Shown in pieces: positions 21,881 to 40,394 of a stretch of 51,534 bases of DNA. Origin of the DNA: Escherichia phage vB_EcoS_ULIM2. The stretch lies in the sequence record OQ850291. One strand, 5' to 3'. The notes under the pieces are model-generated. The model made no database searches and had not been told where the DNA came from. It saw only the letters and a list, made by a program, of their open reading frames with translations. A program made the position numbers and the translations under genes. Position 1 is the stretch's first letter. The number at the start of each line of letters is the position of its first letter.

Positions 21881-22594
21881 ATGAAAGACTTTAATGATAT
21901 CGAAACTGTCGACTTTGCAGAAACAGGTTGCTCATTCACTCGCGAAGCAATAGCGTCAGGCGGTTATTATCAAGCATTGAAAACGCCAACCTGCAAAGAG
22001 ATTTCAGGCCGTCGATACAAGGGAACCAATACACCTGACGCCGTTCGTGATTTATGGTCAACTCCACGCGAGGTTATTGCATACCTTGAGGGGCGTTATG
22101 GGAAATATGATCTCGACGCTGCTGCAAGCGAGGAAAATAAAGTTTGCGAGAAGTTTTACTCCCAGGAAACAAACTGCTTAAAGCGTTGGTGGGGAAAGAA
22201 TAAGCACGTTTGGTTAAATCCTCCTTATAGCCGACCTGATATATTCGTCAAGAAGGCCATTGAGCAAATGGAGCACAACAATCAGATCGATATGCTTTTA
22301 CCCGCAGATAACTCTACGGCGTGGTTTACTGAGGCGCGACAGAACGCAGCTGAAATCATCTGGATTGAAGCGGACTTGACTGAAGATATCGACGGGAATG
22401 AATACGCACGATCCGGTCGCCTGTCTTTCATATCCGGTGAAACTGGAAAGGCCGTAGATGGTAATAACAAAGGTTCGGTAATTTTTATCATGCGCGAACT
22501 TAAAGAGGGTGAGGTACAGCAAACTCACTATATCCCAATCACAAGCATTTGCCCTTCGGTTAAAAACAAACGAGCAAAGGTAAGGAAAGTATGA
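21881..22594 (+). CDS. dam: DNA N6-adenine methyltransferase (Dam-like, 237 aa)
   Basis: WLNPPY catalytic motif IV (NPPY) typical of phage N6-adenine methyltransferases. Confidence 0.7.
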   Translation: MKDFNDIETVDFAETGCSFTREAIASGGYYQALKTPTCKEISGRRYKGTNTPDAVRDLWSTPREVIAYLEGRYGKYDLDAAASEENKVCEKFYSQETNCLKRWWGKNKHVWLNPPYSRPDIFVKKAIEQMEHNNQIDMLLPADNSTAWFTEARQNAAEIIWIEADLTEDIDGNEYARSGRLSFISGETGKAVDGNNKGSVIFIMRELKEGEVQQTHYIPITSICPSVKNKRAKVRKV

Positions 22595-26307: not shown

Positions 26308-26521
26308 ATGCATCAGCCCACATGTAACTTTCGTTAGTGAGTTTTTCGTATTCGCGAACTTCAATTTCACAGGTGTCTCCGTACATCTCAGCTACCTTTT
26401 TCTCATTCGCTACCGCTGATTCCTCGGTCCATCCATCAGCCTTGCTGTAAAGGGTAGGAATCTCACTGCTAGTGCCGTTAGAGTGGTTGTAAACGCGAAC
26501 TACTAAAAATTTGTTAGCCAT
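26306..26521 (-). CDS. Hypothetical protein (71 aa)
   Basis: ATG at 26521 preceded by AAGGAAAG RBS and conserved leader; the track ORF (to 26647) runs through its own promoter. Confidence 0.5.
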   Translation of the reverse strand: MANKFLVVRVYNHSNGTSSEIPTLYSKADGWTEESAVANEKKVAEMYGDTCEIEVREYEKLTNESYMWADA

Positions 26522-26558
26522 GATGCTTTCCTTCATGTCGTTTCGTTTCGATGAAACA

Positions 26559-26601
26559 AATATACCCGATACGAGATCGGGTGTTTTAACAAAAAGTGCT
26601 A
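26559..26601 (-). promoter_or_regulatory. Box-type promoter (leftward)
   Basis: Minus strand TAGCAC-N4-TGTTA (26587-26601), 22 bp, TATATT (26559-26564) inside inverted repeat CCCGAT/ATCGGG. Confidence 0.5.
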
Positions 26602-28767: not shown

Positions 28768-29184
28768 TTATAAGTATTTGGCCTCAAAGGTTGTGCCGTC
28801 AGCAATACTAAAACCCACCTCTTCGCGGAATAAGGTCCAGCGGCAACCATCCTCATCAAAGATGTAACCAGCCACTCCACCGAGAGCGCGACCGCTTTCC
28901 ACCTGGTAGCGTTTGCCAACTTTGAATGATTTTTTCATTGGGTTGCGATGGTCAAGCCCGGTGCATTTTAGTGTCTTCGTTTTCAGTTCTACGAATGTTG
29001 CATTAAGCGGATTACCCAATGAGTCTTCACCATGTGCGGTCATTTTATCAAGCACATGCCAATGCTTAGGCGCGAACTGAACTGAGATATTACCCCCATC
29101 GTCTATGCGTCCTTTATAAAGTTTGTTTGCTTCAAAGAATAATTTCATGGTGGATGAGGTGCATTTGAGTTTGATACTTTTCAT
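28768..29184 (-). CDS. Hypothetical protein (138 aa)
   Basis: ATG at 29184 preceded by the conserved AACCAATCAGGAGA leader. Confidence 0.5.
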   Translation of the reverse strand: MKSIKLKCTSSTMKLFFEANKLYKGRIDDGGNISVQFAPKHWHVLDKMTAHGEDSLGNPLNATFVELKTKTLKCTGLDHRNPMKKSFKVGKRYQVESGRALGGVAGYIFDEDGCRWTLFREEVGFSIADGTTFEAKYL

Positions 29185-29263
29185 TGAATATCTCCTGATT
29201 GGTTATCTTGAACAAGGCCACTTTAACAAATGACCTTGCGGCAATATTAACAAATCGTGCTAT

Positions 29264-29476
29264 TTACCACGGGATATAATCGTCGTCTAAATCTTCGTTT
29301 TTTGGTTCTTCTGGTAATTCAAAGTCAGGATCAAACTCACTTTCTTCGTCCATATTCATATCACCCAAAGCCTCTTCAAGCGTTATTTCTTTATACGCTA
29401 CCTTGATACACCATTCAGCACTAAGACCAGCATCAAGAGCGCCAAAATAACGAGTCCAGAAATTATCCCGTTCCAT
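29264..29476 (-). CDS. Small highly acidic protein with SSB-tail-like C-terminus (70 aa)
   Basis: ATG at 29476 with GGAG 9 nt upstream, coupled to the upstream gene; C-terminal 35 residues are rich in D/E and end DDDYIPW. Confidence 0.5.
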   Translation of the reverse strand: MERDNFWTRYFGALDAGLSAEWCIKVAYKEITLEEALGDMNMDEESEFDPDFELPEEPKNEDLDDDYIPW

Positions 29477-29480
29477 TAAA

Positions 29481-29705
29481 TTAACTCCATGAATTAATGT
29501 AAATTGAGTTAGCCTCAAGAGTAGCGCGCACATCCGCATCTGTTGCATTTACTAAGCGCGAGCCTGGCGTGCTGCCAATAACGTTATTACCGTTACGAAC
29601 CTTAGTTACCGTCATTGAAACAAAACCGGAAGACTTATCCATTTTGATAACTACACGTCCTTTCGCGTTCAGGTGCTTGATGATATTCTCAGCTTTAATG
29701 CTCAT
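29481..29705 (-). CDS. Hypothetical basic protein (74 aa)
   Basis: ATG at 29705 with AAGGAA RBS downstream of a box-type promoter. Confidence 0.5.
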   Translation of the reverse strand: MSIKAENIIKHLNAKGRVVIKMDKSSGFVSMTVTKVRNGNNVIGSTPGSRLVNATDADVRATLEANSIYINSWS

Positions 29706-29738
29706 TTTTAATTCCTTTATTTCGTTTGGTGTAGGAGT

Positions 29739-29782
29739 AATATACCTTACTCCATATTTATTGTCTTTAGCAATTAGTGCTA
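29739..29782 (-). promoter_or_regulatory. Box-type promoter (leftward)
   Basis: Minus strand TAGCAC-N3-TTGCTA (29768-29782), then TATATT (29739-29744) within inverted repeat GGAGTA/TACTCC. Confidence 0.45.
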
Positions 29783-29922
29783 TCAGTACTCGGAAATTAC
29801 TTTACACTCTTTGATTGTTCCACCTAGAACTACTTTCTGCATCATTGCTTTTTGGTGGCTATCGTAAACGCGAACATTTTTTACGCTGTTAAATTTGCCA
29901 GTATAGAAAGTGTGAATATAAA

Positions 29923-30246
29923 TCATTTTTTACCGTCCCAGGTTTGATACGCCGTTACAAGGTTAATGCTATGGTCGAACTCGTCAATGCTAAGCGATCC
30001 GATTCGAACCAGTTCTTTGTCATGCTTGATATCAATCATCCGACTGTACGGATGGCCTGGCACGTATTTGAACAGTCGTTTGCTGTCGGCAATATCAGCG
30101 TTTATTCCGTAGAATCGGCCCACCGCCGCCTTAACGCGCTCCATGATGTTTTTTTCGTGGATTGCTGCCGCGTTATTCAGTGCGACTACCGTACTTCCGT
30201 TAATCTTCGGTGATTTCGTTGTGATTTTGTAAGTGTGGTTCATCAT
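29923..30246 (-). CDS. Hypothetical protein (107 aa)
   Basis: Tandem ATG ATG at 30246 preceded by AGGGGG RBS just after the upstream stop. Confidence 0.45.
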   Translation of the reverse strand: MMNHTYKITTKSPKINGSTVVALNNAAAIHEKNIMERVKAAVGRFYGINADIADSKRLFKYVPGHPYSRMIDIKHDKELVRIGSLSIDEFDHSINLVTAYQTWDGKK

Positions 30247-30259
30247 TCCCCCTAACCAG

Positions 30260-30460
30260 TCAGGATAGATTTCGCGCTTCATCAATGATAACAGGCTCAA
30301 GGCGTTCAAGTCGAACGCGGAACGAGTTCATAAATCCTTCGTTGTTCCTCAGTAGTTCGAATGCGTCTGTAGCTTCAATTGCGCTATTTCCCATGTAGGC
30401 AACTACGCTCTTTTGCGTCTTGCGTGAGATCGCCACAACGCGGTAAATATTATCACTCAT
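30260..30460 (-). CDS. Hypothetical protein (66 aa)
   Basis: ATG at 30460 overlaps the upstream gene's stop by 8 nt. Confidence 0.4.
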   Translation of the reverse strand: MSDNIYRVVAISRKTQKSVVAYMGNSAIEATDAFELLRNNEGFMNSFRVRLERLEPVIIDEARNLS

Positions 30461-30824
30461 ACAATGCCTCCTTGACTCGATCCGCAATGCGGGAGTTGAC
30501 GGTGATTGAGTAGTTAGCCACGCCCCATAATGCAATATTGCCAAGCTCGGTACGCATAGATGGATTGTTAAGTTGAATGATTGTCTCGCCAGTATCGTCA
30601 TCTACGAAACGAGACACGCCAAAACGGTCCACCACGCGCGTTACACGGTTCACGCACTCCATTGCATCACTTACGCCGTAATAAGCGCTCAGAGCGGCTC
30701 TCACGGCCTTCTCTTGCTTGTTGTAAATCTTGCGCGCGATGTTCTCGATCGCCACGCTTTCTTTCTCGTCAGTCTGGATTGCAGTGCTGGCTGAAAAGTC
30801 CAGATCTGTGAACTGATTAAACAT
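30453..30824 (-). CDS. Hypothetical protein (123 aa)
   Basis: ATG at 30824 preceded by leader CCATCAACAGCGAGCGAGGAAAG and a box-type promoter. Confidence 0.5.
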   Translation of the reverse strand: MFNQFTDLDFSASTAIQTDEKESVAIENIARKIYNKQEKAVRAALSAYYGVSDAMECVNRVTRVVDRFGVSRFVDDDTGETIIQLNNPSMRTELGNIALWGVANYSITVNSRIADRVKEALYE

Positions 30825-30855
30825 GATTCTTTCCTCGCTCGCTGTTGATGGGGTG

Positions 30856-30898
30856 ACTATACCAGCCATCCCGGATGCGCGTTTAGCAAAAAGTGCTA
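30856..30898 (-). promoter_or_regulatory. Box-type promoter (leftward)
   Basis: Minus strand TAGCAC-N3-TTGCTA (30884-30898), 22 bp, TATAGT (30856-30861). Confidence 0.5.
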
Positions 30899-31060
30899 TT
30901 CGATAACTTCCTTTGGAACGACCTTGATCTCATCAAAGAAGTTAGTCCTGTCATTCTCAGTGAGATTCTTGATCTCGTTAGCTTTGCTCTCGGTCGAGCA
31001 TATCTCGATCAGTTCGTCACCTTCATAGTAGATTGCTCCCACCACGCAATATACGATCAT
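30896..31060 (-). CDS. Hypothetical protein (54 aa)
   Basis: ATG at 31060 with AGGAG RBS; start uncertain because the predicted -10 of the box at 31085-31099 would overlap it. Confidence 0.35.
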   Translation of the reverse strand: MIVYCVVGAIYYEGDELIEICSTESKANEIKNLTENDRTNFFDEIKVVPKEVIE

Positions 31061-31102
31061 AAACTTTTCTCCTGGGTTAGTTATTAACAAAAAGTGCTAT
31101 AC

Positions 31103-31207
31103 TCAGCGACCAACTGCATCCATAATGATTAAGAACATGATCGCGACCAGGCATCCTGACAGAGAGAAAAGCACCGATCCCATTGCATAATTAAAAAACT
31201 TTGTCAT
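31103..31207 (-). CDS. Small hydrophobic membrane peptide (34 aa), not in the ORF track
   Basis: ATG at 31207 five nt after AGGTGG; translation MTKFFNYAMGSVLFSLSGCLVAIMFLIIMDAVGR; coupled to the upstream gene. Confidence 0.45.
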   Translation of the reverse strand: MTKFFNYAMGSVLFSLSGCLVAIMFLIIMDAVGR

Positions 31208-31209
31208 AA

Positions 31210-31440
31210 TTACCACCTGAAACTATCGATAGTGTCATTAATGTACTTCACCTGGGCCTCTACGTCGGACGTGGCAATGTACTGGAAAGTGTCGTAATCT
31301 TCCCAAAGGTCGACAATCTCAACCTTAGTATGATGCTCTTTCAAGCCTCCCATGTGACCATAATGCGTACGGTAGACGATGAATCCCTCATTACTTGCTC
31401 GCTGGATTGCTTTCTTTAAACCTGGGTGCTTTATTGCCAT
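31210..31440 (-). CDS. Hypothetical protein (76 aa)
   Basis: ATG at 31440 preceded by the AACCAATCAGGAGAA leader. Confidence 0.5.
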   Translation of the reverse strand: MAIKHPGLKKAIQRASNEGFIVYRTHYGHMGGLKEHHTKVEIVDLWEDYDTFQYIATSDVEAQVKYINDTIDSFRW

Positions 31441-31471
31441 CCTGTCATTCTCCTGATTGGTTGATGTGTTC

Positions 31472-31514
31472 ACTATACCCCGATTCCCTTCGGGGAGTTT
31501 AGCAATTCGTGCTA
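31472..31514 (-). promoter_or_regulatory. Box-type promoter (leftward)
   Basis: Minus strand TAGCAC-N3-TTGCTA (31500-31514), 22 bp, TATAGT (31472-31477) within inverted repeat CCCCGAAGGG/AATCGGGG. Confidence 0.5.
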
Positions 31515-31850
31515 TTAAGCAATGTCGAACTCAGCGGCATATGCTTCCTTGATGCCAGCTTCACGCATGGTGCGCTTGCTGATTTTGCGCGGGAATTTGT
31601 ACTGACTGTTAGGCATAACCCACCAGAAGCAGGCAGTTTCACGAACGATTTCATATTTACCGTAACGGGTGAATATATCGCGTTCTGAATCCGGCTGATT
31701 AACACAGGTCAGGAATTTAGCTGCCTTGTCTTCAGTTTTGATTTCTTCCCATACGAAAGAATCCATACCGTTAACATTGCAAGCTACCATGATGTACTCA
31801 ACGCCGTTTTCGATTTTGATGATTTCGTTACCGCGATTTTCGTATTTCAT
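31515..31850 (-). CDS. Hypothetical protein (111 aa)
   Basis: ATG at 31850 preceded by CAGGAGCAGGAAA RBS region and leader CATCGAAACGAG. Confidence 0.5.
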   Translation of the reverse strand: MKYENRGNEIIKIENGVEYIMVACNVNGMDSFVWEEIKTEDKAAKFLTCVNQPDSERDIFTRYGKYEIVRETACFWWVMPNSQYKFPRKISKRTMREAGIKEAYAAEFDIA

Positions 31851-31888
31851 TTTCCTGCTCCTGATGTTTATCTCGTTTCGATGAAGTA

Positions 31889-31931
31889 ATAATACCCCAT
31901 CGTGAGATCTGGCGTTTAGCAATTCGTGCTA
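31889..31931 (-). promoter_or_regulatory. Box-type promoter (leftward)
   Basis: Minus strand TAGCAC-N3-TTGCTA (31917-31931), 22 bp, TATTAT (31889-31894). Confidence 0.5.
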
Positions 31932-31932
31932 T

Positions 31933-32019
31933 TTAACCCATCCTTTCAATTACAAGGAGCATTACCCAAACCGCTAAGACTAACTGCATCATCATAGCTA
32001 ACAAAAAGAACTTATTCAT
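31933..32019 (-). CDS. Small hydrophobic membrane peptide (28 aa), not in the ORF track
   Basis: ATG overlaps the TGA of the upstream gene (ATGA); GAGGAA RBS 7 nt upstream; translation MNKFFLLAMMMQLVLAVWVMLLVIERMG. Confidence 0.4.
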   Translation of the reverse strand: MNKFFLLAMMMQLVLAVWVMLLVIERMG

Positions 32020-32831
32020 ACTGATTCCTCACTGGCGAATACCTCGCAAGATTCACTGCATGAGCCTGTGTCGAATGATTTTGCCCCACGAACCCTTGCG
32101 GCTACCTCATCCCTCGACTGTGGAAACATCTGTATAATGTCACCGAGTGAGCGCCTTCCTCTGTACATGTCAGATGAAGACTCTTTCTTGTTGTGCTCAC
32201 TGATTGTGTTAATGAATAGCCTTGCAAGCTCCGGCTCATCCTTACAAGCAAGAGCTAGCTTGAGTTCTGACTTCTTGATGCAGAAAACGCAGTTACCAAG
32301 GTGTTCATCAATCCCAAGATCGAAAGGCATGTCACGCCAGAAGTTGATAACGTCCTGCTTATCAAAGTCAGATATGTCTGCAAGGTAACTGAACCCATCA
32401 GCTGCCTTTAATCTCTTTGGCTCATCCGCACGAATGCCAATCCATCGCTGATAATTACCCTTGCCATACTTCTTCTCGCAATACTTTTCAAATGGCTTAG
32501 TCTTCATCCTGTTTGTACAGAATGCACCTCCCTGGTATGGATTTCCGTACTTCCTTAGCATTCTTATCCACCCAACAAGATCGTGATGAATATCGTCCAC
32601 GCTTACAACTTCGAATGATGGGGTTCCGCGGAACTTATCGCTTGGCAAGCATCTTAAGCAAGTTATACCCCTGGGAATCATTGACGATACATTTCGAATA
32701 AACTCATAAGTCATTGGATGTTCTGCGCCAGTGTCCATGTAAATAACCTCAGCGTCAGGATAAATCTTGAGAACCTCAAGTGTCATGTATGCCGAAGTCC
32801 TGCCACCACTAAAACTAATTACCTGATTCAT
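32016..32831 (-). CDS. PP-loop ATPase of the PAPS-reductase-like family (271 aa)
   Basis: N-terminal ISFSGGRTSAYM PP-loop (SGGxxS) motif; ATG at 32831 with AGGGG RBS; the track ORF (to 32900) runs through its promoter. Confidence 0.55.
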   Translation of the reverse strand: MNQVISFSGGRTSAYMTLEVLKIYPDAEVIYMDTGAEHPMTYEFIRNVSSMIPRGITCLRCLPSDKFRGTPSFEVVSVDDIHHDLVGWIRMLRKYGNPYQGGAFCTNRMKTKPFEKYCEKKYGKGNYQRWIGIRADEPKRLKAADGFSYLADISDFDKQDVINFWRDMPFDLGIDEHLGNCVFCIKKSELKLALACKDEPELARLFINTISEHNKKESSSDMYRGRRSLGDIIQMFPQSRDEVAARVRGAKSFDTGSCSESCEVFASEESV

Positions 32832-32865
32832 TTCGACCCCTATCTGTGAGCTAAATAACAACTGC

Positions 32866-32909
32866 ATAATAGCCAATCCTCCGCTACTGGTCGTTAGCAA
32901 AAAATGCTA
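32866..32909 (-). promoter_or_regulatory. Box-type promoter (leftward) for the PP-loop gene
   Basis: Minus strand TAGCAT-N4-TTGCTA (32895-32909), 23 bp, TATTAT (32866-32871). Confidence 0.45.
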
Positions 32910-33099
32910 TTCCAATAATTGCTCATTATTCCATCAATTGTGGAATATGTGGAATAATTCTGATTGTTATTGATTGCGAATGACGAAACGTGATTATTGC
33001 ATGATGTGCAACAGTTGGTTGATTTGTTGATGAGAACGCAATGATTGTTAGAGGGAGGATCTGGTGTTGCCCGGCTCGCCTGGTAGTCATCTCCATTTT

Positions 33100-33114
33100 T
33101 AGCAAAAAGTGCTA
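33100..33114 (-). promoter_or_regulatory. Second palindromic box upstream of the PP-loop gene, no obvious -10
   Basis: TAGCAC-N3-TTGCTA on the minus strand; the position 22 bp downstream is not -10-like. Confidence 0.35.
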
Positions 33115-33391
33115 TCGATTACGATTATGCTTGATTGTGTGTTAATCCATGTATATGATTTGCATAAATCGCAATCGTAGACAAAATTACACCAAATTAC
33201 GCCCTATAATATACATATAGATATATGTATATATATAATATATAAGTGTTTTTTTATTTATATATATAGATACTATTATTTGTAATATGGCTGTATAGCG
33301 TGTCTACTATGTTAATCGTTGGATGCTCTGGTTATGATATTCATGTTTATATATACAGTAGTTTTATCGGCTCATATTTATATGGGAAAAG

Positions 33392-33418
33392 CGATTAACA
33401 CGATTAACACGATTAACC
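33392..33418. repeat. Three tandem copies of a 9-bp unit (CGATTAACA)
   Basis: CGATTAACA CGATTAACA CGATTAACC read directly, inside the AT-rich divergent region. Confidence 0.6.
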
Positions 33419-33442
33419 ACACTTAAAATCGGCTCGCGAGCA

Positions 33443-33494
33443 TTGACACAAGCGGGTCGCCGTGTAACACTACGATTAGAGACACAGTGTTACA
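33443..33494 (+). promoter_or_regulatory. Candidate rightward promoter with operator-like inverted repeat
   Basis: TTGACA at 33443-33448; perfect inverted repeat TGTAACACT (33463-33471) / AGTGTTACA (33486-33494); the -10 is weak (TAACAC), so the promoter call is tentative. Confidence 0.35.
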
Positions 33495-33532
33495 TGTTAA
33501 TCATGGTGTATATTGAAAATGAGGAGAAAGAT

Positions 33533-34108
33533 ATGAGTTCTTACCAATCAGACGCAGTGCAGGCAGCAATTCAGGCGGCTTACGAGAAATCTGGCGTGAC
33601 CGTTGAGAAGCGCCAGGAGGCAAAAGTGACCGATGTTATCCGTGCCGCTTGCGATCAGCTTTATGGTGATGGCGAGAATACCGAGTTCACATTCGATGCT
33701 ATTCAGATGGCTGAGGCAGCAGTAAGAAAGTCAGTCCCTGACGCTGATGATGATACCGTTAGCGGATATGCCGAATCCTGGTTGCTCGGGAAGACGGAAG
33801 AGATTAACGAGAAGTTTAAATCATCATTCATCACCCCGATCGTATCGCGCCACTTCTCCAAGATCGGCAAGTCGGTCAAGGTGAGCGTAACCATGAACGA
33901 TGAGAAGTTGCGAGTCGTTACTATCTCAGTGAGTGACGAAGAAGTTCCGGTGAAGAAGCGCCGCAGTCGGAAAAAAGTTAGCCTGGCTGATTGCCTGGAT
34001 TCGTTTGTGGTTGATGTGGGTAAACTGGCTGATAGCGAATTGATGACTCGTGACGTAAACGAGATCGTTCGCCAGATGAAGGCGCATATCGAAAAATGTG
34101 GATTATAA
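33533..34108 (+). CDS. Hypothetical protein, first gene of the rightward accessory block (191 aa)
   Basis: ATG at 33533 with GAGGAG RBS; the track ORF (from 33443) overlaps the promoter region. Confidence 0.5.
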   Translation: MSSYQSDAVQAAIQAAYEKSGVTVEKRQEAKVTDVIRAACDQLYGDGENTEFTFDAIQMAEAAVRKSVPDADDDTVSGYAESWLLGKTEEINEKFKSSFITPIVSRHFSKIGKSVKVSVTMNDEKLRVVTISVSDEEVPVKKRRSRKKVSLADCLDSFVVDVGKLADSELMTRDVNEIVRQMKAHIEKCGL

Positions 34109-34120
34109 GGAGAGGTGACT

Positions 34121-34450
34121 ATGTTTACTAATATGTTTGATCCGAAGGTGATGGAAAGACGAAAACTGGAAAGTGAGAAGCAGGAAGAGAACATCAAGAA
34201 GATAGCTGATGCCGTGACTGGTAAAAAATTAATCAAAGTAAACCTTAATACCATTGGCTCAGCGTACGACGTAAGAGGTCTTGGCAAGAAAGAGGCGTCA
34301 GTGAAGGTTCTTAGGCTTATTCACGAAATTAAGAATCAGTACAAGATAACCCTAAAGATGAAAAGCCTTGAGGTTCCGCACTGTGAGCTTGTGAACATCA
34401 CGGAGCCGGAAGGGTGGGAAATAACCGACGTCGAGTTTATCGTAGAATAG
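34121..34450 (+). CDS. Hypothetical protein (110 aa)
   Basis: ATG at 34121 with AAGGAGAGG RBS. Confidence 0.5.
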   Translation: MFTNMFDPKVMERRKLESEKQEENIKKIADAVTGKKLIKVNLNTIGSAYDVRGLGKKEASVKVLRLIHEIKNQYKITLKMKSLEVPHCELVNITEPEGWEITDVEFIVE

Positions 34451-34490
34451 CACTTTTTGTTAAAACCGGATCGGGATAACCTGGTATAGT
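34448..34490 (+). promoter_or_regulatory. Box-type promoter
   Basis: TAGCAC (34448-34453), TTGTTA (34457-34462), 22 bp, TATAGT (34485-34490); perfect 8-bp inverted repeat GGGATAAC/GTTATCCC (34473-34496) around the -10. Confidence 0.55.
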
Positions 34491-34521
34491 TATCCCATCA
34501 ACAACGAATGAGGAAGCGAAG

Positions 34522-34716
34522 ATGGAAACGCAAATTGACGTAGTGGTTGTTCAGCGCGATTCAACTCACGAAAAGGGTCTGTTCAAGAAAGGAACCGAAA
34601 TCACGATCGACCTTGAGGACATGGTTGCGTATCACTCGGGTCTGACCTGGAATGTGGTGCGAGTTGGCAGCGACTACAAACTCAAAGGCTTTAACACTTA
34701 CTTTGCTGAGGCTTAA
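34522..34716 (+). CDS. Hypothetical protein (64 aa)
   Basis: ATG after leader CATCAACAACGAATGAGGAAGCGAAG. Confidence 0.5.
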   Translation: METQIDVVVVQRDSTHEKGLFKKGTEITIDLEDMVAYHSGLTWNVVRVGSDYKLKGFNTYFAEA

Positions 34717-34718
34717 TC

Positions 34719-35189
34719 ATGACGACCATTACCGTATTTCTGGCTAAAGATAATGTTGATGGCGCTATGTCATTCTTCGCGTTCGAGCATGAAGCCGGAT
34801 CGCACTGGCATATGTACACTCATTACACGGTCATCTCAATTGAGGCTTACGACGGCGATTTGCTCACTGACAAGCTGAGTAATTTTATTGATGTGGTTAA
34901 GGATAACGACGGCTGCGAATGGAAAGAAGATAACGAAGTTATGCGAATGTTTGATATGGTCAATCCGGTTCGCCTTGTATCTTTTGAGCTTGGTTCTGAT
35001 GTGACCGTTGAGGTGAGAAAGGCTGGTGAGTTATTGCCAGGAATGCGTGTGCTGACTGGTTACTCAGGTCGTAAGGTATGGCGCACTGTATCTAAGGTTC
35101 GCCAGCGTTCGGCAACTTGCTATAGCATACACTTTGAGGATGGTTGGAACGAGGTCGCCGGAAGCGGCGTGAAGTATCTCACCAAATAG
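34719..35189 (+). CDS. Hypothetical protein (156 aa)
   Basis: ATG 3 nt after the upstream stop. Confidence 0.5.
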   Translation: MTTITVFLAKDNVDGAMSFFAFEHEAGSHWHMYTHYTVISIEAYDGDLLTDKLSNFIDVVKDNDGCEWKEDNEVMRMFDMVNPVRLVSFELGSDVTVEVRKAGELLPGMRVLTGYSGRKVWRTVSKVRQRSATCYSIHFEDGWNEVAGSGVKYLTK

Positions 35190-35229
35190 CACGAATTGTT
35201 AAAACCGGATCGTGGCATCTTGATATAGT
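35187..35229 (+). promoter_or_regulatory. Box-type promoter with an unusually long leader
   Basis: TAGCAC (35187-35192), TTGTTA (35196-35201), 22 bp, TATAGT (35224-35229); about 170 nt of repeat-containing leader before the ATG at 35408. Confidence 0.5.
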
Positions 35230-35263
35230 TACTCCATCGAAACGCTTCGGGGCAAACCCAAAA

Positions 35264-35362
35264 GAAGGAAGCGGCAAACGTAGACCGGAGCCGTGCAAAC
35301 CTCGAAGCAAATTGACTTGGGAAAACCCATTAGGAAGGAAGGGGCAAACGTAGACCGGAGCC
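35264..35362 (+). repeat. Two direct repeats of about 29 bp in the leader
   Basis: GAAGGAAGCGGCAAACGTAGACCGGAGCC (35264-35292) and GAAGGAAGGGGCAAACGTAGACCGGAGCC (35334-35362); further GCAAAC copies at 35252 and 35295. Confidence 0.6.
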
Positions 35363-35407
35363 TCGTAACCCCAAGTTAAAAATGATGTACCAATCAGAGG
35401 AATCACC

Positions 35408-35671
35408 ATGTCAATCGTCAAGAACCGTAACGCAATAGAAGCAACACGCCACAACAAGCAACACGCGATATTCATTGCTCGCTACTGCTCAAACATCAAT
35501 GGTGGCGTGCAGTATCGCCGCTATGCAGTGATTGAGATTTCACCATACATTTACAAGGAGTATCTCGAAGAAAACGGTAAGTGGGTTGAGATCGAAGGTG
35601 TAACGAGCTTCTTGATCTGGAACGGTGAATTTCAGGGTTATGACGATATCAGCACTTTAATTGAGGAGTAA
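35408..35671 (+). CDS. Hypothetical protein (87 aa)
   Basis: ATG preceded by the ACCAATCAGAGGAATCA leader. Confidence 0.5.
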   Translation: MSIVKNRNAIEATRHNKQHAIFIARYCSNINGGVQYRRYAVIEISPYIYKEYLEENGKWVEIEGVTSFLIWNGEFQGYDDISTLIEE

Positions 35672-35676
35672 TAATC

Positions 35677-35904
35677 ATGCCACGTTACAGCAACCTAACT
35701 CAACTAACCCGCGTCAACGGGCACATGATTCCGGCAAAATCCACTCACTACGCAATTGGCGCAAAACACGGATTATATTTCAAGTGGCGCGGTCAATGGA
35801 ACTTCACAGCGGTGAGTAATTTCTACATGCGCGTTCCTGGCGATGACCCGCAATCGGTAGTAGAAAACTCAATCGGTGACAACAAGATCGAGGTGATGAA
35901 ATGA
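35677..35904 (+). CDS. Hypothetical protein (75 aa)
   Basis: ATG with GAGGAG RBS. Confidence 0.5.
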   Translation: MPRYSNLTQLTRVNGHMIPAKSTHYAIGAKHGLYFKWRGQWNFTAVSNFYMRVPGDDPQSVVENSIGDNKIEVMK

Positions 35905-36011
35905 ACTTCAATACAATTGCCTTATGGTCTGCCGTCTGGTTCTTCTGCATGGGTCATGCCATTGTTGGGATCGTAATCATGTTACTACTGTGTGCCGGAG
36001 CGTTTGAATGA
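35901..36011 (+). CDS. Small hydrophobic membrane peptide (36 aa), not in the ORF track
   Basis: ATGA overlap with the upstream stop; translation MNFNTIALWSAVWFFCMGHAIVGIVIMLLLCAGAFE. Confidence 0.4.
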   Translation: MNFNTIALWSAVWFFCMGHAIVGIVIMLLLCAGAFE

Positions 36012-36181
36012 TGCGCATTCTAATTTGCATGATGGCGGCAGTCGCCATAACTATCCTGGTTGTGTCCGGCTGCGGAGAGGTAAAAGAGCGATGTCATGAA
36101 ACCGGGAACCAGGTTACTACGTTCGTGATGGTCGGCAACGTATTGCTACCAATCACATCAAATGAAATCACTTGCGAATAG
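36008..36181 (+). CDS. Small putative lipoprotein (57 aa), not in the ORF track
   Basis: Overlaps the upstream stop; signal-like N-terminus MMRILICMMAAVAITILVVSGC with lipobox VSGC. Confidence 0.4.
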   Translation: MMRILICMMAAVAITILVVSGCGEVKERCHETGNQVTTFVMVGNVLLPITSNEITCE

Positions 36182-36221
36182 CACCTTTTGTTAAAACTCA
36201 ATTCCGGGGTTGCGATATAGT
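36179..36221 (+). promoter_or_regulatory. Box-type promoter
   Basis: TAGCAC (36179-36184), TTGTTA (36188-36193), 22 bp, TATAGT (36216-36221) within inverted repeat GGGGTT/AACCCC. Confidence 0.5.
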
Positions 36222-36252
36222 AACCCCATCGACAACGAACGAGGATACAAAC

Positions 36253-36741
36253 ATGAAAATCAAATTACTTTGCACTGGCGGTTACAAAGGCTTTACTCGC
36301 GACCTGGAAGCTGACCCTATCGTGGTTGACGCTGTGAAATGTGATGATAGCCTCGGCGGCTACCGTGTCAAAGTGGAAGACCTGGTGAAAGCTGGCGTGT
36401 ACGATCTGGACTATGGCCTATCGATTAGCCCGGTATTCGGTCCGGCAGACTTCAACGAGAAGGACGGAACTATGTTCTTTTTTGAATGGGAAGTTCAAGC
36501 GAACGTCAAGCCGCGCAAGGTTCGACTTCTCAACAATGGCGGCTACCCGATGATACCAGGTTATGAGAATCGCACGTTCCCAGTTATTGTGGACTTCACC
36601 GAAATCACTAACAACCTGGTCCGCGTCAGCAATGAGCATCTCAAGGCTGTAGGATTCACTGGCGGTATACATAAAGAGGGTTTGTGCTTCGTTCTCGAAG
36701 AAATGCACGGTTACTATCCTGAGTGCGAGTTAGTTTACTAA
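36253..36741 (+). CDS. Hypothetical protein (162 aa)
   Basis: ATG at 36253 after leader CATCGACAACGAACGAGGA. Confidence 0.5.
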   Translation: MKIKLLCTGGYKGFTRDLEADPIVVDAVKCDDSLGGYRVKVEDLVKAGVYDLDYGLSISPVFGPADFNEKDGTMFFFEWEVQANVKPRKVRLLNNGGYPMIPGYENRTFPVIVDFTEITNNLVRVSNEHLKAVGFTGGIHKEGLCFVLEEMHGYYPECELVY

Positions 36742-36782
36742 GCACGAATTGTTAAAAGGGGATTTGGCCTGACTGGTATAAT
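36740..36782 (+). promoter_or_regulatory. Box-type promoter
   Basis: AAGCAC-N3-TTGTTA (36740-36754), 22 bp, TATAAT (36777-36782) within inverted repeat GGGGAT/ATCCCC. Confidence 0.5.
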
Positions 36783-36812
36783 CCCCACATCAACCACTAA
36801 TAGGAAATCATC

Positions 36813-37319
36813 ATGTTAAAATTAGAAGACGTAAAATTCCCGATTAAGTTTATCAGCAATGGTTGCGGTGAAATTACATTCGCCAGTGAAGATAAGGGCA
36901 AATGGGCCACTGATGAGGTGTCTGAGCTTAAGTTGGATTGGTTTATCGCCAGACATAACGAAGTGAATCAAGAAAATTCACCCAATAAGGACTACTACTA
37001 CATTATGAGTGGCGGTCAGGGTGTGAAAGGCATGTTTGATGGCTGGAAGATTGAAGGCTCTGTTTTCCGTTCTGAAAAGCCAGAAATCAAGCCAATGCTA
37101 CAGTGTACTCAGATCGAGAACATGCCATTGAGCGCCACGATAAAAGGCGTTCAGATTAGCGATGAATCATGGATCGAGATTACCGCCACGCCTAAAACTA
37201 TTGAGGTACATGATGATGTGGTGATTCTCCTGTTGCATTACGGCAGCTTTAAGCACAAGACTGTATCAGGTGAAATCAGCATTAAGCGCGGAACGCTTGT
37301 ACGATACGAGGTGAAATAA
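36813..37319 (+). CDS. Hypothetical protein (168 aa)
   Basis: ATG with AGGAAA RBS. Confidence 0.5.
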   Translation: MLKLEDVKFPIKFISNGCGEITFASEDKGKWATDEVSELKLDWFIARHNEVNQENSPNKDYYYIMSGGQGVKGMFDGWKIEGSVFRSEKPEIKPMLQCTQIENMPLSATIKGVQISDESWIEITATPKTIEVHDDVVILLLHYGSFKHKTVSGEISIKRGTLVRYEVK

Positions 37320-37468
37320 TGACGGCGTGGATTTTGATTATCTTGATGAGTACCGGGGCGGATCACGTATACATGAACAGCCAGCAATCATGCAACGAGG
37401 CTCAGGCAGTTATTGCAGAGAATAAGCCGTTCGGGTACGAAGTGAAAACGATGTGTGTTAAAAAATAG
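37319..37468 (+). CDS. Small protein with hydrophobic N-terminus (49 aa), not in the ORF track
   Basis: TAATG overlap with the upstream stop; translation begins MTAWILIILMSTG. Confidence 0.35.
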   Translation: MTAWILIILMSTGADHVYMNSQQSCNEAQAVIAENKPFGYEVKTMCVKK

Positions 37469-37508
37469 CACGAATTGCTAAACCTTCCGCAAGGCCATTT
37501 GATACAGT
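37466..37508 (+). promoter_or_regulatory. Box-type promoter
   Basis: TAGCAC (37466-37471), TTGCTA (37475-37480), 22 bp, TACAGT (37503-37508) within inverted repeat GGCCA/TGGCC. Confidence 0.5.
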
Positions 37509-37548
37509 GGCCTTATTGAAGCAGAGCAACCAATCAGAGGAATCAGCT

Positions 37549-37836
37549 ATGAGAAAAACTCATAAGTTAAAAATCGCTCCGGTACATTTCATCGGAGTAA
37601 TGAACGGAACAAAAACGGCAGAGTTCCGCATCAATGACCGCAACTTCCAGGTTGGTGATATCCTTGAGCTACGCGAGTTCGATCGTGACGAGTTTACCGG
37701 GTGGGAAGTTCACGCCAGGGTGTCCGATGTTACAGACGTGACGCCATACATCAATCGCGGTTATGACGAGCAAGAATGCGACTTCACGCAATACGTGATG
37801 TTATCAATCAAGCCTTACAGGAAGGTTGGACCATGA
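37549..37836 (+). CDS. ASCH/PUA-like domain protein (DUF3850-like, 95 aa)
   Basis: KTHKLKIAPVHF...EFRINDRNFQVGDILELRE matches the pattern of small phage ASCH-like proteins from memory; ATG after the CCAATCAGAGGAATCA leader. Confidence 0.45.
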   Translation: MRKTHKLKIAPVHFIGVMNGTKTAEFRINDRNFQVGDILELREFDRDEFTGWEVHARVSDVTDVTPYINRGYDEQECDFTQYVMLSIKPYRKVGP

Positions 37837-38471
37837 AATTTGAGTGCGTATCAAGTAGCGGATCTGGTTTTAAGTTGGGAAAAACTTACAAAGGTGTTCG
37901 CGTAAATGATGACAGCTTCATCATTACTGATGAGAACGGTTGCAACGTGAACGTTGTACGGCGTCACGAATATCAGGAAATTTTCCTGCCTTATGGCGGT
38001 AGCTCAAAATATATCTTCCATCGAATCGTGGATGGTGTTAAATTTAACGACGTAATCGAAGCAATCAACCAACTGCATAATAAAGAGGTAAAATTTATGA
38101 AATTCGAATGTATCAGTGATAACACTAAAAAATTTACCGTTGGCAAAATCTACGACGTGCCTACTGAGCACGCAAAGCACACTGTAGCGCTGACCGACGA
38201 CACGGGCCGCCACCGAATTGCAACCGTAACGCATAATGGCGAAGGTCTTCGCTGGAACAGTGGTGGCACTAAGTTCGCAACGTTCGGCAAGAAGCGCAAG
38301 CGCACTTTCAGCGTCAATGGCAATGTTGCAGCTAACAAGATCCACAACGTCAAGCCGTCGGAAGTTGACCGTAAGCCAGCGCTGAAGTTTGAAGAGAAGG
38401 CAGATTTGTCTGGTCTAGCTATCGCTCTTGTTCTCCTGGTCGCTTCGATTTCGCTGTTGTTCATCATGTAA
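37833..38471 (+). CDS. Hypothetical protein with internal tandem duplication and C-terminal transmembrane anchor (212 aa)
   Basis: Two repeats beginning MKFECVSSSGSGFKLGKTYKG and MKFECISDNTKKFTVGKIYDV; C-terminal LSGLAIALVLLVASISLLFIM; the second repeat has its own in-frame AAGAGG RBS and ATG at 38097. Confidence 0.5.
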   Translation: MKFECVSSSGSGFKLGKTYKGVRVNDDSFIITDENGCNVNVVRRHEYQEIFLPYGGSSKYIFHRIVDGVKFNDVIEAINQLHNKEVKFMKFECISDNTKKFTVGKIYDVPTEHAKHTVALTDDTGRHRIATVTHNGEGLRWNSGGTKFATFGKKRKRTFSVNGNVAANKIHNVKPSEVDRKPALKFEEKADLSGLAIALVLLVASISLLFIM

Positions 38472-38478
38472 TGCTAAT

Positions 38479-38512
38479 GGGGAATCGGCTCTGAACGGTT
38501 CCCCTTTCTTTT
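38479..38512 (+). terminator. Rho-independent terminator
   Basis: GGGGAA-N14-TTCCCC followed by TTTCTTTT. Confidence 0.5.
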
Positions 38513-38524
38513 GGAGAAAACACT

Positions 38525-38635
38525 ATGCCAGACTTTTCTAATTGGAAAAACGAACCTCCATCATTTCAGGAGTTGTTATTCTGCCTCCTGGTTCTGACGC
38601 TATCTCTTAAGGGGGTGTTATGGCTACTATCATGA
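38525..38635 (+). CDS. Small peptide with hydrophobic C-terminus (36 aa), not in the ORF track
   Basis: ATG 7 nt after GGAG; translation MPDFSNWKNEPPSFQELLFCLLVLTLSLKGVLWLLS; overlaps the start of the next gene. Confidence 0.3.
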   Translation: MPDFSNWKNEPPSFQELLFCLLVLTLSLKGVLWLLS

Positions 38636-38838
38636 CCGCAGAAGATGCAGCACGTGACGCAGTGGAAGGAATGCGACCAAATACGTCCAGAATCGCCCAC
38701 TGCTACAAATTTGATGTGTCGGCAGTGCAGTTGGTACACGAAATTTTAAGGCTCCCACAAGTCGATTCAGCGCGCGTGGTGACGTGCTTAAAAAATTATT
38801 TTTGCATCACTATTAAAACGAATAGCACGAATTGCTAA
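38620..38838 (+). CDS. Hypothetical protein (72 aa)
   Basis: ORF-track ORF with GGGGG RBS; its 3' end runs into a box-type promoter. Confidence 0.4.
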   Translation: MATIMTAEDAARDAVEGMRPNTSRIAHCYKFDVSAVQLVHEILRLPQVDSARVVTCLKNYFCITIKTNSTNC

Positions 38839-38865
38839 AACTTACTCAAGGGTATTTGATAGAAT
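38823..38865 (+). promoter_or_regulatory. Box-type promoter
   Basis: TAGCAC (38823-38828), TTGCTA (38832-38837), 22 bp, TAGAAT (38860-38865). Confidence 0.5.
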
Positions 38866-38904
38866 GCCCTTCGTTGAGTTAAGCAACCAATCAGAGGAAT
38901 CACT

Positions 38905-39108
38905 ATGAAAACTATTACCGGAATGAGCGACGAAACGAGAACGCAGATCGTTAGCATGCTAATCGGCATGGCTGACGATATTCAGAATAGCCAAGTCGTT
39001 ATTGATTCATGCAATCAGACTCGTGAGAGTAAATTTGAATCATCCGGCTACAAAATTGTTGAAGAAGAATTAACCATCAAAATCATTCGCGTACAGGAGA
39101 AAGCATAA
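38905..39108 (+). CDS. Hypothetical protein (67 aa)
   Basis: ATG after the CAACCAATCAGAGGAATCA leader. Confidence 0.5.
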   Translation: MKTITGMSDETRTQIVSMLIGMADDIQNSQVVIDSCNQTRESKFESSGYKIVEEELTIKIIRVQEKA

Positions 39109-39641
39109 TGGATAAAATTACCATTTGGGGCCAGGCAATCAACCTATTTCTCGGCACGCGCCGCGTAGCAATCTTTGACTTTGACGGAACACTTAGCGAT
39201 GGATCTGGTCGACTTCACCTGCTACCTACAAAGGATTTGCACTTAACTGAAAGCTGGTCCGAGTTTAACCGCGCGGCAATATTTGACAACCCTATCCAAA
39301 GCACGATCGATGTGATGAACTCTATGTTTGCCGCTGGGTATCATGTAATAATTTTAACCGGGCGAAGTGATGAGGTGCGTTACGCATCTGAGTTATGGCT
39401 TAAGCATCACGGCGCTCGATATGATTACTTAGTCATGCGACCGCACACCGATAACCGCAAAGACACGGTAATGAAAGAAGAGGCGGTGCGCGCTATCGGC
39501 ATTGATAACATTCTGGCGGCCTGGGATGACTCACCGCAAATTATTCCATTATTCCGCTCGCTTGGAATAACCACTTACGCTGTAGTTGACTATGGCGATA
39601 AAGTTCACGAACATTTAAAATCTCACGGGGTAGATGAATGA
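39108..39641 (+). CDS. HAD-family phosphatase, nucleotidase-like (177 aa)
   Basis: FDFDGTL (HAD motif I, DxDGT) near the N-terminus; next to a nucleotide kinase gene. Confidence 0.55.
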   Translation: MDKITIWGQAINLFLGTRRVAIFDFDGTLSDGSGRLHLLPTKDLHLTESWSEFNRAAIFDNPIQSTIDVMNSMFAAGYHVIILTGRSDEVRYASELWLKHHGARYDYLVMRPHTDNRKDTVMKEEAVRAIGIDNILAAWDDSPQIIPLFRSLGITTYAVVDYGDKVHEHLKSHGVDE

Positions 39642-40322: not shown

Positions 40323-40362
40323 CACGAATTGCTAAAACGTCGGTGGGGTGATTTGATATAGT
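40320..40362 (+). promoter_or_regulatory. Box-type promoter
   Basis: TAGCAC (40320-40325), TTGCTA (40329-40334), 22 bp, TGATATAGT ending at 40362. Confidence 0.55.
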
Positions 40363-40394
40363 TACCTCATCGACAACGAAGAGAGAAAATCGAA

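Follow-up and report, generated by a model that had tools for sequence, protein, structure and literature searches.

The 51,534-nucleotide (nt) sequence of Escherichia phage vB_EcoS_ULIM2 (record OQ850291; this whole stretch is called the window below) contains, on the minus strand at 32016..32831, a gene for a 271-residue PP-loop protein that resembles phosphoadenosine phosphosulfate (PAPS) reductase. Judged by its sequence, the protein almost certainly belongs to the already known NinC family and is a full-length orthologue of phage lambda NinC. The gene is an ordinary member of that family, not a new kind of system. Our best explanation of the whole, to which we give slightly less than even weight, combines a NinC-family enzyme with a coupled membrane peptide in an accessory cassette whose function would be counter-defence.

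Identity and start of the gene

The open reading frame (ORF) runs on the minus strand from an ATG at 32831 to a TGA at 32018-32016 and is the first gene of a leftward block of small genes of unknown function. An earlier note, made from the sequence alone, had described this position, the 271-residue product and an N-terminal SGGxxS, all of which stand (the motif reads SFSGGRTS). The same note assigned the protein to the PP-loop/PAPS-reductase-like class, which holds: Pfam PF01507 (PAPS_reduct) matches at E 6e-8 with 33.3 bits (gathering cut-off 22.5), PHROG 33262 matches at E 1.6e-89 and PHROG 424 at E 3e-61 (both labelled "PAPS reductase"), and PP-loop folds were recovered by structure comparison. 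The profile search and structure prediction that it proposed as checks have been run; the protein has the PF01507 domain, falls in the NinC family and carries five cysteines that are invariant in the alignment described below.

Pairwise alignment with lambda NinC (Orf290, lambdap64) gives 47% identity over residues 1-268 (E 1e-87), with FCT, GNC(V/I)FC, GSCSESCE and all five cysteines retained in the lambda protein. The two proteins are alike in length class, PP-loop, DTG motif and invariant cysteines, and both genes are ATGA-coupled to a small downstream ORF. Their settings differ: the window gene is first in its operon, behind a T1-type repeat, in a T1-like phage (Drexlerviridae), whereas lambda, a temperate phage, carries ninC in its nin region. 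The family has been recognised since lambda was sequenced, and lambda does not need ninC for growth (PMC10695390: non-essential); in the lambda interactome, NinC gave no interactions (PMC3224144).

Relatives are abundant. A tblastn search against phage records matched 538 of them, including phage lambda (where the match is the gene ninC), and more than 4000 relatives were retrieved from a large protein collection at E <= 1e-5, those with names coming mostly from phages, prophages and enterobacterial genomes. Among Drexlerviridae in GenBank, the carriers are two phages only, GaoY1-9D and vB_EcoM-p111 (p111 below), both of the genus Nouzillyvirus. The window gene has 86% DNA identity to the Nouzillyvirus copies, and the protein is 91% identical to that of GaoY1-9D. 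Some NinC homologues are longer (339-423 residues), and a search of these for fused domains found none beyond PF01507.

An alternative in-frame ATG at 32867 has a GGAGGA Shine-Dalgarno sequence and would add 12 residues (32867-32832), and this stretch overlaps the -10-like TATTAT described below. We rejected it as the start of the gene, as it is not kept in GaoY1-9D, the closest relative. We aligned 22 family members, with 53-91% identity to the window protein, and 21 homologues share a start position equivalent to 32831, which makes the ATG at 32831 the correct start.

Enzyme class

The same alignment defines the invariant positions of the family. The PP-loop motif SFSGGRTS (residues 6-13, minus strand 32793..32816; ISFSGGRTSAYM occupies residues 5-16) comes after strand E2-7, as expected of the PP-loop superfamily with its Rossmann-like alpha/beta fold, and its S6, S8, G9, G10, R11 and S13 are invariant, as is M32-D-T-G...E-H-P-x-T-Y. 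Also invariant are five cysteines, which span 32046..32519 on the minus strand: C105 in FCT (32519-32517), C181 and C184 in GNCVFC (32291-32280), and C258 and C262 in GSCSESCE (32060-32046).

An AlphaFold2 model built from this alignment has a mean predicted local distance difference test score (pLDDT) of 82.8 and a predicted template modelling score (pTM) of 0.85. Its C-terminal tail (residues 255-271), which bears C258 and C262, has low pLDDT and is predicted to be flexible. The nearest solved structures are adenosine phosphosulfate (APS) and PAPS reductases, followed by TilS, [4Fe-4S]-LarE, TtuA and NcsA, all of them PP-loop enzymes. Only ~156-167 of the 271 residues superpose on them, so the C-terminal third is family-specific. 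Searched alone, the C-terminal 103 residues gave no Pfam match, even at E 10. A PDB match to "PptA" (E 0.16) is weak and not interpretable.

Among defence-system models, PADLOC ranks SspD (E 5.5e-15) above BrxP (2e-5) and DndC (4e-3). The SspD match spans model positions 2-122 of 277, short of a full-length SspD, and the DndC equivalog TIGR03183 scores 10.8 bits where 290.4 are required. What the window protein has in common with SspD, DndC and BrxP is the PP-loop ATP-pyrophosphatase fold of the PAPS-reductase branch, and the SspD model is of similar size (277 positions); unlike them, the window protein is phage-borne and stands alone. DndC is a PP-loop ATP pyrophosphatase with a three-cysteine [4Fe-4S] centre and a cysteine dyad thought to take sulfur from a desulfurase (PMC10853773). 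Compared with this published description of DndC, NinC has 3+2 invariant cysteines, of which the pair sits on the flexible tail. These features make an ATP-dependent adenylating sulfurtransferase a candidate class for the window protein, and we consider it about evenly balanced whether sulfur-transfer chemistry is what the protein performs.

Database entries call such proteins "phosphoadenosine phosphosulfate reductase". Taken literally, this name would make the gene a genuine assimilatory PAPS/APS reductase, i.e., an auxiliary metabolic gene that raises host sulfate reduction to sulfite and hence cysteine supply. CysH and APS reductase are the nearest solved folds, and the nucleotide-binding motif DTG...PxTYxF is common to the window protein and CysH. 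However, scores against the equivalog models for CysH all fall far below the cut-offs (NF002537, 18.5 vs 154 bits; TIGR00434, 15.8 vs 165; TIGR02057, 12.9 vs 254), as does that for APS reductase (TIGR02055, 15.6 vs 235.3 bits). The catalytic motif of the CysH family is a C-terminal cysteine motif, ECG(L/I)H; ECGLH (ECGxH) is absent throughout the 271-residue sequence, whose C-terminus instead reads GSCSESCEVF. In profile alignment, true CysH has a degenerate SSSFGIQA where NinC retains SFSGGRTS. Set against CysH and APS reductases of solved structure (PDB 1sur, 2goy and 6vpu), the window protein thus has an intact PP-loop and a different C-terminal 100 residues, and the incomplete superposition on PAPS/APS reductase folds given above points the same way. 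The CC...CxxC motif of iron-sulfur (Fe-S) APS reductases is only half present (C...CxxC is there, the Cys-Cys pair is not), and E. coli already has its own cysH. We therefore regard the assimilatory role as very improbable, and the window protein is, on sequence grounds, most probably not a true PAPS reductase.

The coupled 28-residue peptide

The NinC stop codon overlaps the ATG of a 28-residue hydrophobic peptide ORF (MNKFFLLAMMMQLVLAVWVMLLVIERMG, minus strand 31933..32019) in the tetranucleotide ATGA at 32019-32016, and GAGGAA lies 5 nt upstream of the peptide ATG. The earlier note had reported this overlap with a 28-residue membrane peptide, and its observation is borne out by conservation in two metagenomic contigs. 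In the first (L004), NinC is 91% identical and is followed by a 30-residue peptide ORF; in the second (L009), NinC is 68% identical and is followed by a 28-residue ORF, MNKFFFVAMMMQVLLAIWVMLLVIERVF. Both keep the ATGA overlap. Between the window and L009, the peptide ORF has 0.56 synonymous differences per synonymous site (pS) and 0.14 nonsynonymous differences per nonsynonymous site (pN), a ratio of 0.25, which is close to the 0.35 of NinC itself. Neither tblastn nor blastn found a counterpart of the peptide in the phage collection. We regard the ORF as real and its product as a predicted single-pass membrane peptide, whose translation is coupled to that of the enzyme.

GaoY1-9D and p111 do not have the peptide: there, NinC ends ...CEVFSDI and abuts the next box. 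To judge from these genomes, the peptide is dispensable for the NinC enzyme, at least in the two relatives without it. An ATGA overlap likewise links ninC to ninD in lambda (2070-2073 of the lambda sequence that was compared), and NinD was considered as a counterpart of the peptide and rejected: where the window has a 28-residue hydrophobic peptide, NinD is an unrelated, Cys-rich protein of 57 residues with two CxxC pairs.

The upstream boxes are copies of a T1-family repeat

Two palindromic boxes lie upstream of the gene, both read on the minus strand. The nearer, TAGCATTTTTTGCTA (32895..32909, read 32909..32895), heads the cassette and coincides with a right-hand mosaic junction; the farther, TAGCACTTTTTGCTA (33100..33114, read 33114..33100), has no -10-like hexamer at the usual distance. 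The earlier note was right about these coordinates and about a -10 at the first box only, but its treatment of the boxes as features of this gene does not survive a genome-wide count. TAGCA-N5-TGCTA occurs 12 times in the window, compared with 0.03 expected, and when a TGTTA 3' arm is also allowed there are 22 oriented copies genome-wide, whose orientation tracks local gene direction. The 15-nt boxes start at 1678, 17760, 19302, 21811, 23166, 26587, 29248, 29768, 30884, 31085, 31500, 31917, 32895, 33100, 34448, 35187, 36179, 37466, 38823, 40320, 42131 and 49319. They precede most small transcription units, and the sole variable arm position is box position 13, which is C or T (TGCTA or TGTTA). 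The copy at 31917..31931 (minus strand) directly follows the stop codon of the peptide and heads the following gene, and that at 31500..31514 (minus strand) marks the left-hand junction of a 1.4-kb insertion.

Phage TLS has a 21-nt direct repeat, aaATAGCACnnnTTGnTAAAA, in 18 intergenic copies that are oriented with transcription and lie ~76 nt from start codons (PMC11447400). The same paper places it also in T1, Rtp and Rogue1, as unpublished observations, and poses its function as an open question (PMC11447400). Both boxes upstream of the NinC gene match the TLS consensus, are intergenic and point along transcription, and the window boxes and the TLS repeat agree in consensus, orientation, intergenic site and the G/T/A sub-types of the central triplet. 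That the boxes are the T1-family 21-nt repeat is, in our assessment, close to certain.

The window copies also have a regular relationship to promoter-like sequence. In 18 of the 22, a -10-like hexamer (TATAGT, TATTAT, TATATT, TACAGT, TAGAAT, etc.) lies exactly 22-23 nt past the box, often preceded by TGn in the style of an extended -10 (e.g., TGGTATAGT and TGATATAGT). For the first Shine-Dalgarno-preceded ATG that opens a frame of 40 or more codons, the distance from the box is 59-68 nt at 10 of the 22 sites and 55-68 nt at 12. The box at 32909-32895 has this standard geometry, with TATTAT (minus strand, 32866..32871) 23 nt downstream and the NinC ATG 63 nt downstream, 34 nt beyond the hexamer. 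With this spacing, the box would cover approximately -49 to -35 and have its centre near -42, a geometry like that of a class-II activator site and unlike that of a normal -35. Because of this position, the TTGCTA of the box is too far upstream for a normal -35. We accordingly rejected it as a sigma-70 -35 element: 22-23 nt separate it from the -10, where 16-18 would be expected, and a consensus scanner finds no such promoter there. The cassette would be expressed from an ordinary T1-type promoter module, made up of the 21-nt repeat, a 23-nt spacer, TATTAT and ~34 nt to the ATG, of which the geometry is observed and the activity is what we infer. A global regulator that binds all copies of the box is possible. 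What is new relative to the published repeat is the fixed 22-23-nt distance to the -10 and the coincidence with mosaic junctions.

Read as dedicated palindromic operators of the NinC-like gene, the two boxes would have in their favour that both lie upstream of it and that each contains a 5-bp inverted repeat. Against this are the 22 oriented copies genome-wide and the presence of the same element in TLS, T1, Rtp and Rogue1. Further, Tunaviruses without the NinC gene conserve the two boxes as well as the intervening DNA, so the boxes are not its private operators, a reading we find scarcely credible. The ~190 nt between the boxes (32910-33099) are near-invariant in the window and in phages Lg3 and IME18, more conserved than the adjacent genes. 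We do not regard a 57-codon ORF past the box at 33100 as a gene, since in Lg3 it is interrupted by an in-frame TAA, and the stretch is therefore non-coding. An Rfam search of the whole window gave no match, and the predicted fold of the conserved 231 nt between the two boxes is unconvincing (z = -1.8).

By eye, we also noticed that an inverted repeat of 6-9 bp is usual between box and gene, often across the -10, with a sequence that varies and a pairing that is kept (G-T pairs included). Examples are AAGGCCA/TGGCCTT, AAGGGTA/TGCCCTT, GGGGTGA/TTACCTC and GATGGGGTA/TACTTCATC, often followed by CATCGA(A/C)AACGA. The regions concerned are 26520-26590, 29700-29770, 30820-30885, 31440-31500, 31860-31917, 34463-34500, 36194-36230, 37481-37520, 38838-38875 and 40335-40372.

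The cassette as a mosaic insertion

The genome is that of a T1-like siphophage, with Tunavirus IME18, XJA18 and Sfin-1 as its best matches (~90% identity over 80-88% of a 24-kb probe), and the neighbours of the NinC-like gene are small T1-type genes of unknown function. The window is collinear with Tunavirus Lg3 except for 1.4 kb at 31484-32889, which is absent from Lg3, and the sequence from 31496/31499 to 32912 matches Nouzillyvirus-type sequences (contigs L001, L002 and L004). At the right junction, Tunavirus homology stops at 32890 and Nouzillyvirus homology at 32912. Both junctions of the insertion fall at boxes, the left one at 31500-31514 and the right one at 32895-32909. Besides the NinC gene and the peptide ORF, the block carries a gene for a 111-residue protein of unknown function (PHROG 29431; minus strand, 31515..31850), which adjoins NinC in L001, L002, L004 and L009. 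This PHROG 29431 protein is a constant companion of the NinC-like gene in Nouzillyvirus-type contigs, and there may or may not be a functional link between the two.

Between the window and IME18 (28985-39640), 6 of 16 homology-block ends are no more than 40 nt from a box centre, compared with 0.97 expected (P ~1e-4 by a simple permutation), a statistic to be read with the caveat that alignments will naturally end next to elements that, like the boxes, are conserved and intergenic. The homology breakpoints suggest that recombination at the repeats brought in the NinC cassette and the next gene together, as 1.4 kb of DNA from a Nouzillyvirus-like phage. The pattern suggests that cassettes are exchanged between T1-like genomes at these repeats.

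A parallel may exist in the promoter-early stem-loop (PeSL) elements, mobile regulatory cassettes of T4-type phages reportedly described by Arbiol et al. in 2010. There, a repeated promoter and hairpin motif is said to flank small accessory genes at recombination boundaries, as here. The PeSL sequence is unrelated to that of the T1-type repeat, however, and belongs to a different phage family, and the recombination role proposed here comes from homology breakpoints.

Two features of the divergent intergenic region to the right complete the description of the neighbourhood. An AT-rich tract of TATA-type repeats (TATCTATATATATAAATAAAAAAACACTTATATATTATATATATACATATATCTATATGTATATTATA) at ~33195-33300 is near-identical in three Tunaviruses, and a sigma-70-like promoter serving the rightward operon is predicted inside it, at 33210-33239. 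Just upstream of that operon, GTTAATCG(T/C) is repeated three times in tandem (~33400-33430); Lg3 has these copies and IME18 does not.

Functional precedent and proposed role

The earlier note stated that phage members of this family have no established role. That remains right for biochemistry, but genetic work by Piel et al. links the family to Dnd: a passage in PMC13551039 states that a phage PAPS reductase aids evasion of Dnd, citing Piel et al. 2022. JSS1_004, a candidate for this "phage PAPS reductase against Dnd", was rejected, being an unrelated T7-like kinase/shutoff protein; the correct reference is Piel et al. In Vibrio phage 44E38.1, the p0018 product has 479 residues, with a PAPS-reductase domain at its N-terminus and Dam at its C-terminus, and moving p0018 and p0019 into a sister Vibrio phage enabled infection of a Dnd-carrying host (bioRxiv 10.1101/2021.05.05.442762).

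We compared the window protein with the copy in phage 34E29.1 of the same collection, a region with 100% DNA identity to 44E38.1. It encodes a 479-residue fusion with Dam at residues 300-476 and has a DUF6475 gene upstream; the "blue" phage 66E30.1 has the Dam part only. Residues 1-280 of p0018 (34E29.1 copy) are 52% identical to the window protein (E 1e-97), with all five cysteines retained. Like the window gene, p0018 lies in a variable early/accessory region, and all catalytic-looking residues are conserved between the two. Function has been tested only for the Vibrio gene, however, and only as a two-gene swap, whereas the window gene has neither the Dam fusion nor a DUF6475 neighbour. By this homology, p0018 is the strongest lead to the function of the window protein.

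In the mechanism that we propose, the intact ATP-pyrophosphatase PP-loop would act together with C105, C181 and C184, which appear suited to a [4Fe-4S] cluster, and with the cysteine pair on the flexible tail. A substrate would be adenylated with ATP and would then receive sulfur, as in DndC, SspD, BrxP, TtuA and LarE. The role, proposed from homology to Vibrio p0018, would be counter-defence against phosphorothioate (PT)-based immunity of the Dnd/Ssp type. This could work by either of two routes: the phage DNA may be phosphorothioated using host IscS and host partner proteins, or the host PT machinery may be interfered with. The earlier note had guessed at DNA modification or anti-defence, which agrees with the only genetic evidence for the family, that p0018 and p0019 together overcome Dnd, but that evidence comes from a two-gene swap involving a Dam fusion. 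Such an anti-PT-defence role for the window protein is possible but rather doubtful.

Several points weigh against the proposed function. The Vibrio experiment moved two genes, one of them encoding a NinC-like module joined to Dam, so anti-Dnd activity is not assignable to that module alone. The window protein ends at residue 271 with no Dam fusion; the Dam gene of this phage lies ~10 kb away (~21881-22594), and Pfam searches of nine neighbouring products found no Dam or DUF6475. Nor are there dndD/dndE, sspB/sspC, other ssp genes or a cysteine desulfurase among the neighbouring genes, and the phage does not have the partner genes (DndD/E or SspB/C) that PT modification normally needs. Likeness to SspD, DndC and BrxP is confined to the N-terminal nucleotide-binding half. 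The PP-loop of most ATP pyrophosphatases has an Asp (SGGxDS), in whose place the window protein bears a Thr (SGGRTS). Lambda ninC is dispensable in laboratory conditions, which fits an accessory role and is silent on mechanism, and we know of no biochemistry for any NinC-family protein.

The target of a PP-loop adenylating enzyme need not be the DNA backbone. Thiolation of the kind carried out by TtcA, TtuA or NcsA, or chemistry like that of TilS with lysidine, provides models for an enzyme acting on transfer RNA (tRNA) or other RNA, and a nucleotide or a small-molecule immune signal could also be the substrate; such an enzyme would tune translation or counter another defence. Yet the sole genetic data for the family point to Dnd, a family member is found fused to a DNA adenine methyltransferase, and DTG...PxTY puts the protein in the PAPS-reductase/DndC/SspD branch and not with the tRNA thiolases. 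We judge a non-backbone target unlikely. It is also conceivable that the protein is not a catalyst at all. It might be a decoy or inhibitor (titrating IscS, DndD/E or the DndFGH/SspE sensors), or an accessory to replication or recombination in the manner of the lambda nin region, where ninC is located between ninB and ninG. Some relatives are recorded as "NinC-like recombination protein", and the absence of PT-pathway partner genes from the phage would suit a non-catalytic role, but the recombination label comes without evidence in those records. The PP-loop, the DTG motif and the five cysteines, moreover, are strictly invariant down to ~50% identity. This invariance favours catalysis over a decoy, and we consider a non-catalytic role quite improbable.

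A broader extension of the sulfurtransferase reading would cover the whole family. NinC proteins might be stand-alone phage Fe-S/PP-loop sulfurtransferases that write PT on phage DNA, with host IscS and PT partners taken over for the purpose, or sabotage the host PT machinery, thereby giving broad escape from Dnd/Ssp/BREX-4-type systems, and in Drexlerviridae the enzyme and the 28-residue peptide would be shuffled at the 21-nt promoter repeats. In this full form the proposal is on the unlikely side.

Significance

Few lambda genes besides ninC still await an assigned function. Its relatives are among the commonest "auxiliary metabolic" annotations in phage genomes, where they are read, probably wrongly, as sulfate-assimilation enzymes. 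With a NinC copy at the head of an operon in a small, tractable T1-like coliphage, vB_EcoS_ULIM2 offers a convenient test of counter-defence against phosphorothioate-based immunity. The function of the 21-nt repeat has likewise become directly testable, through its fixed distance to -10 elements and the sites of the mosaic junctions. If cassettes are indeed shuffled at these repeats, then the 21-nt repeats of T1-like phages would be both a promoter element and a recombination joint.

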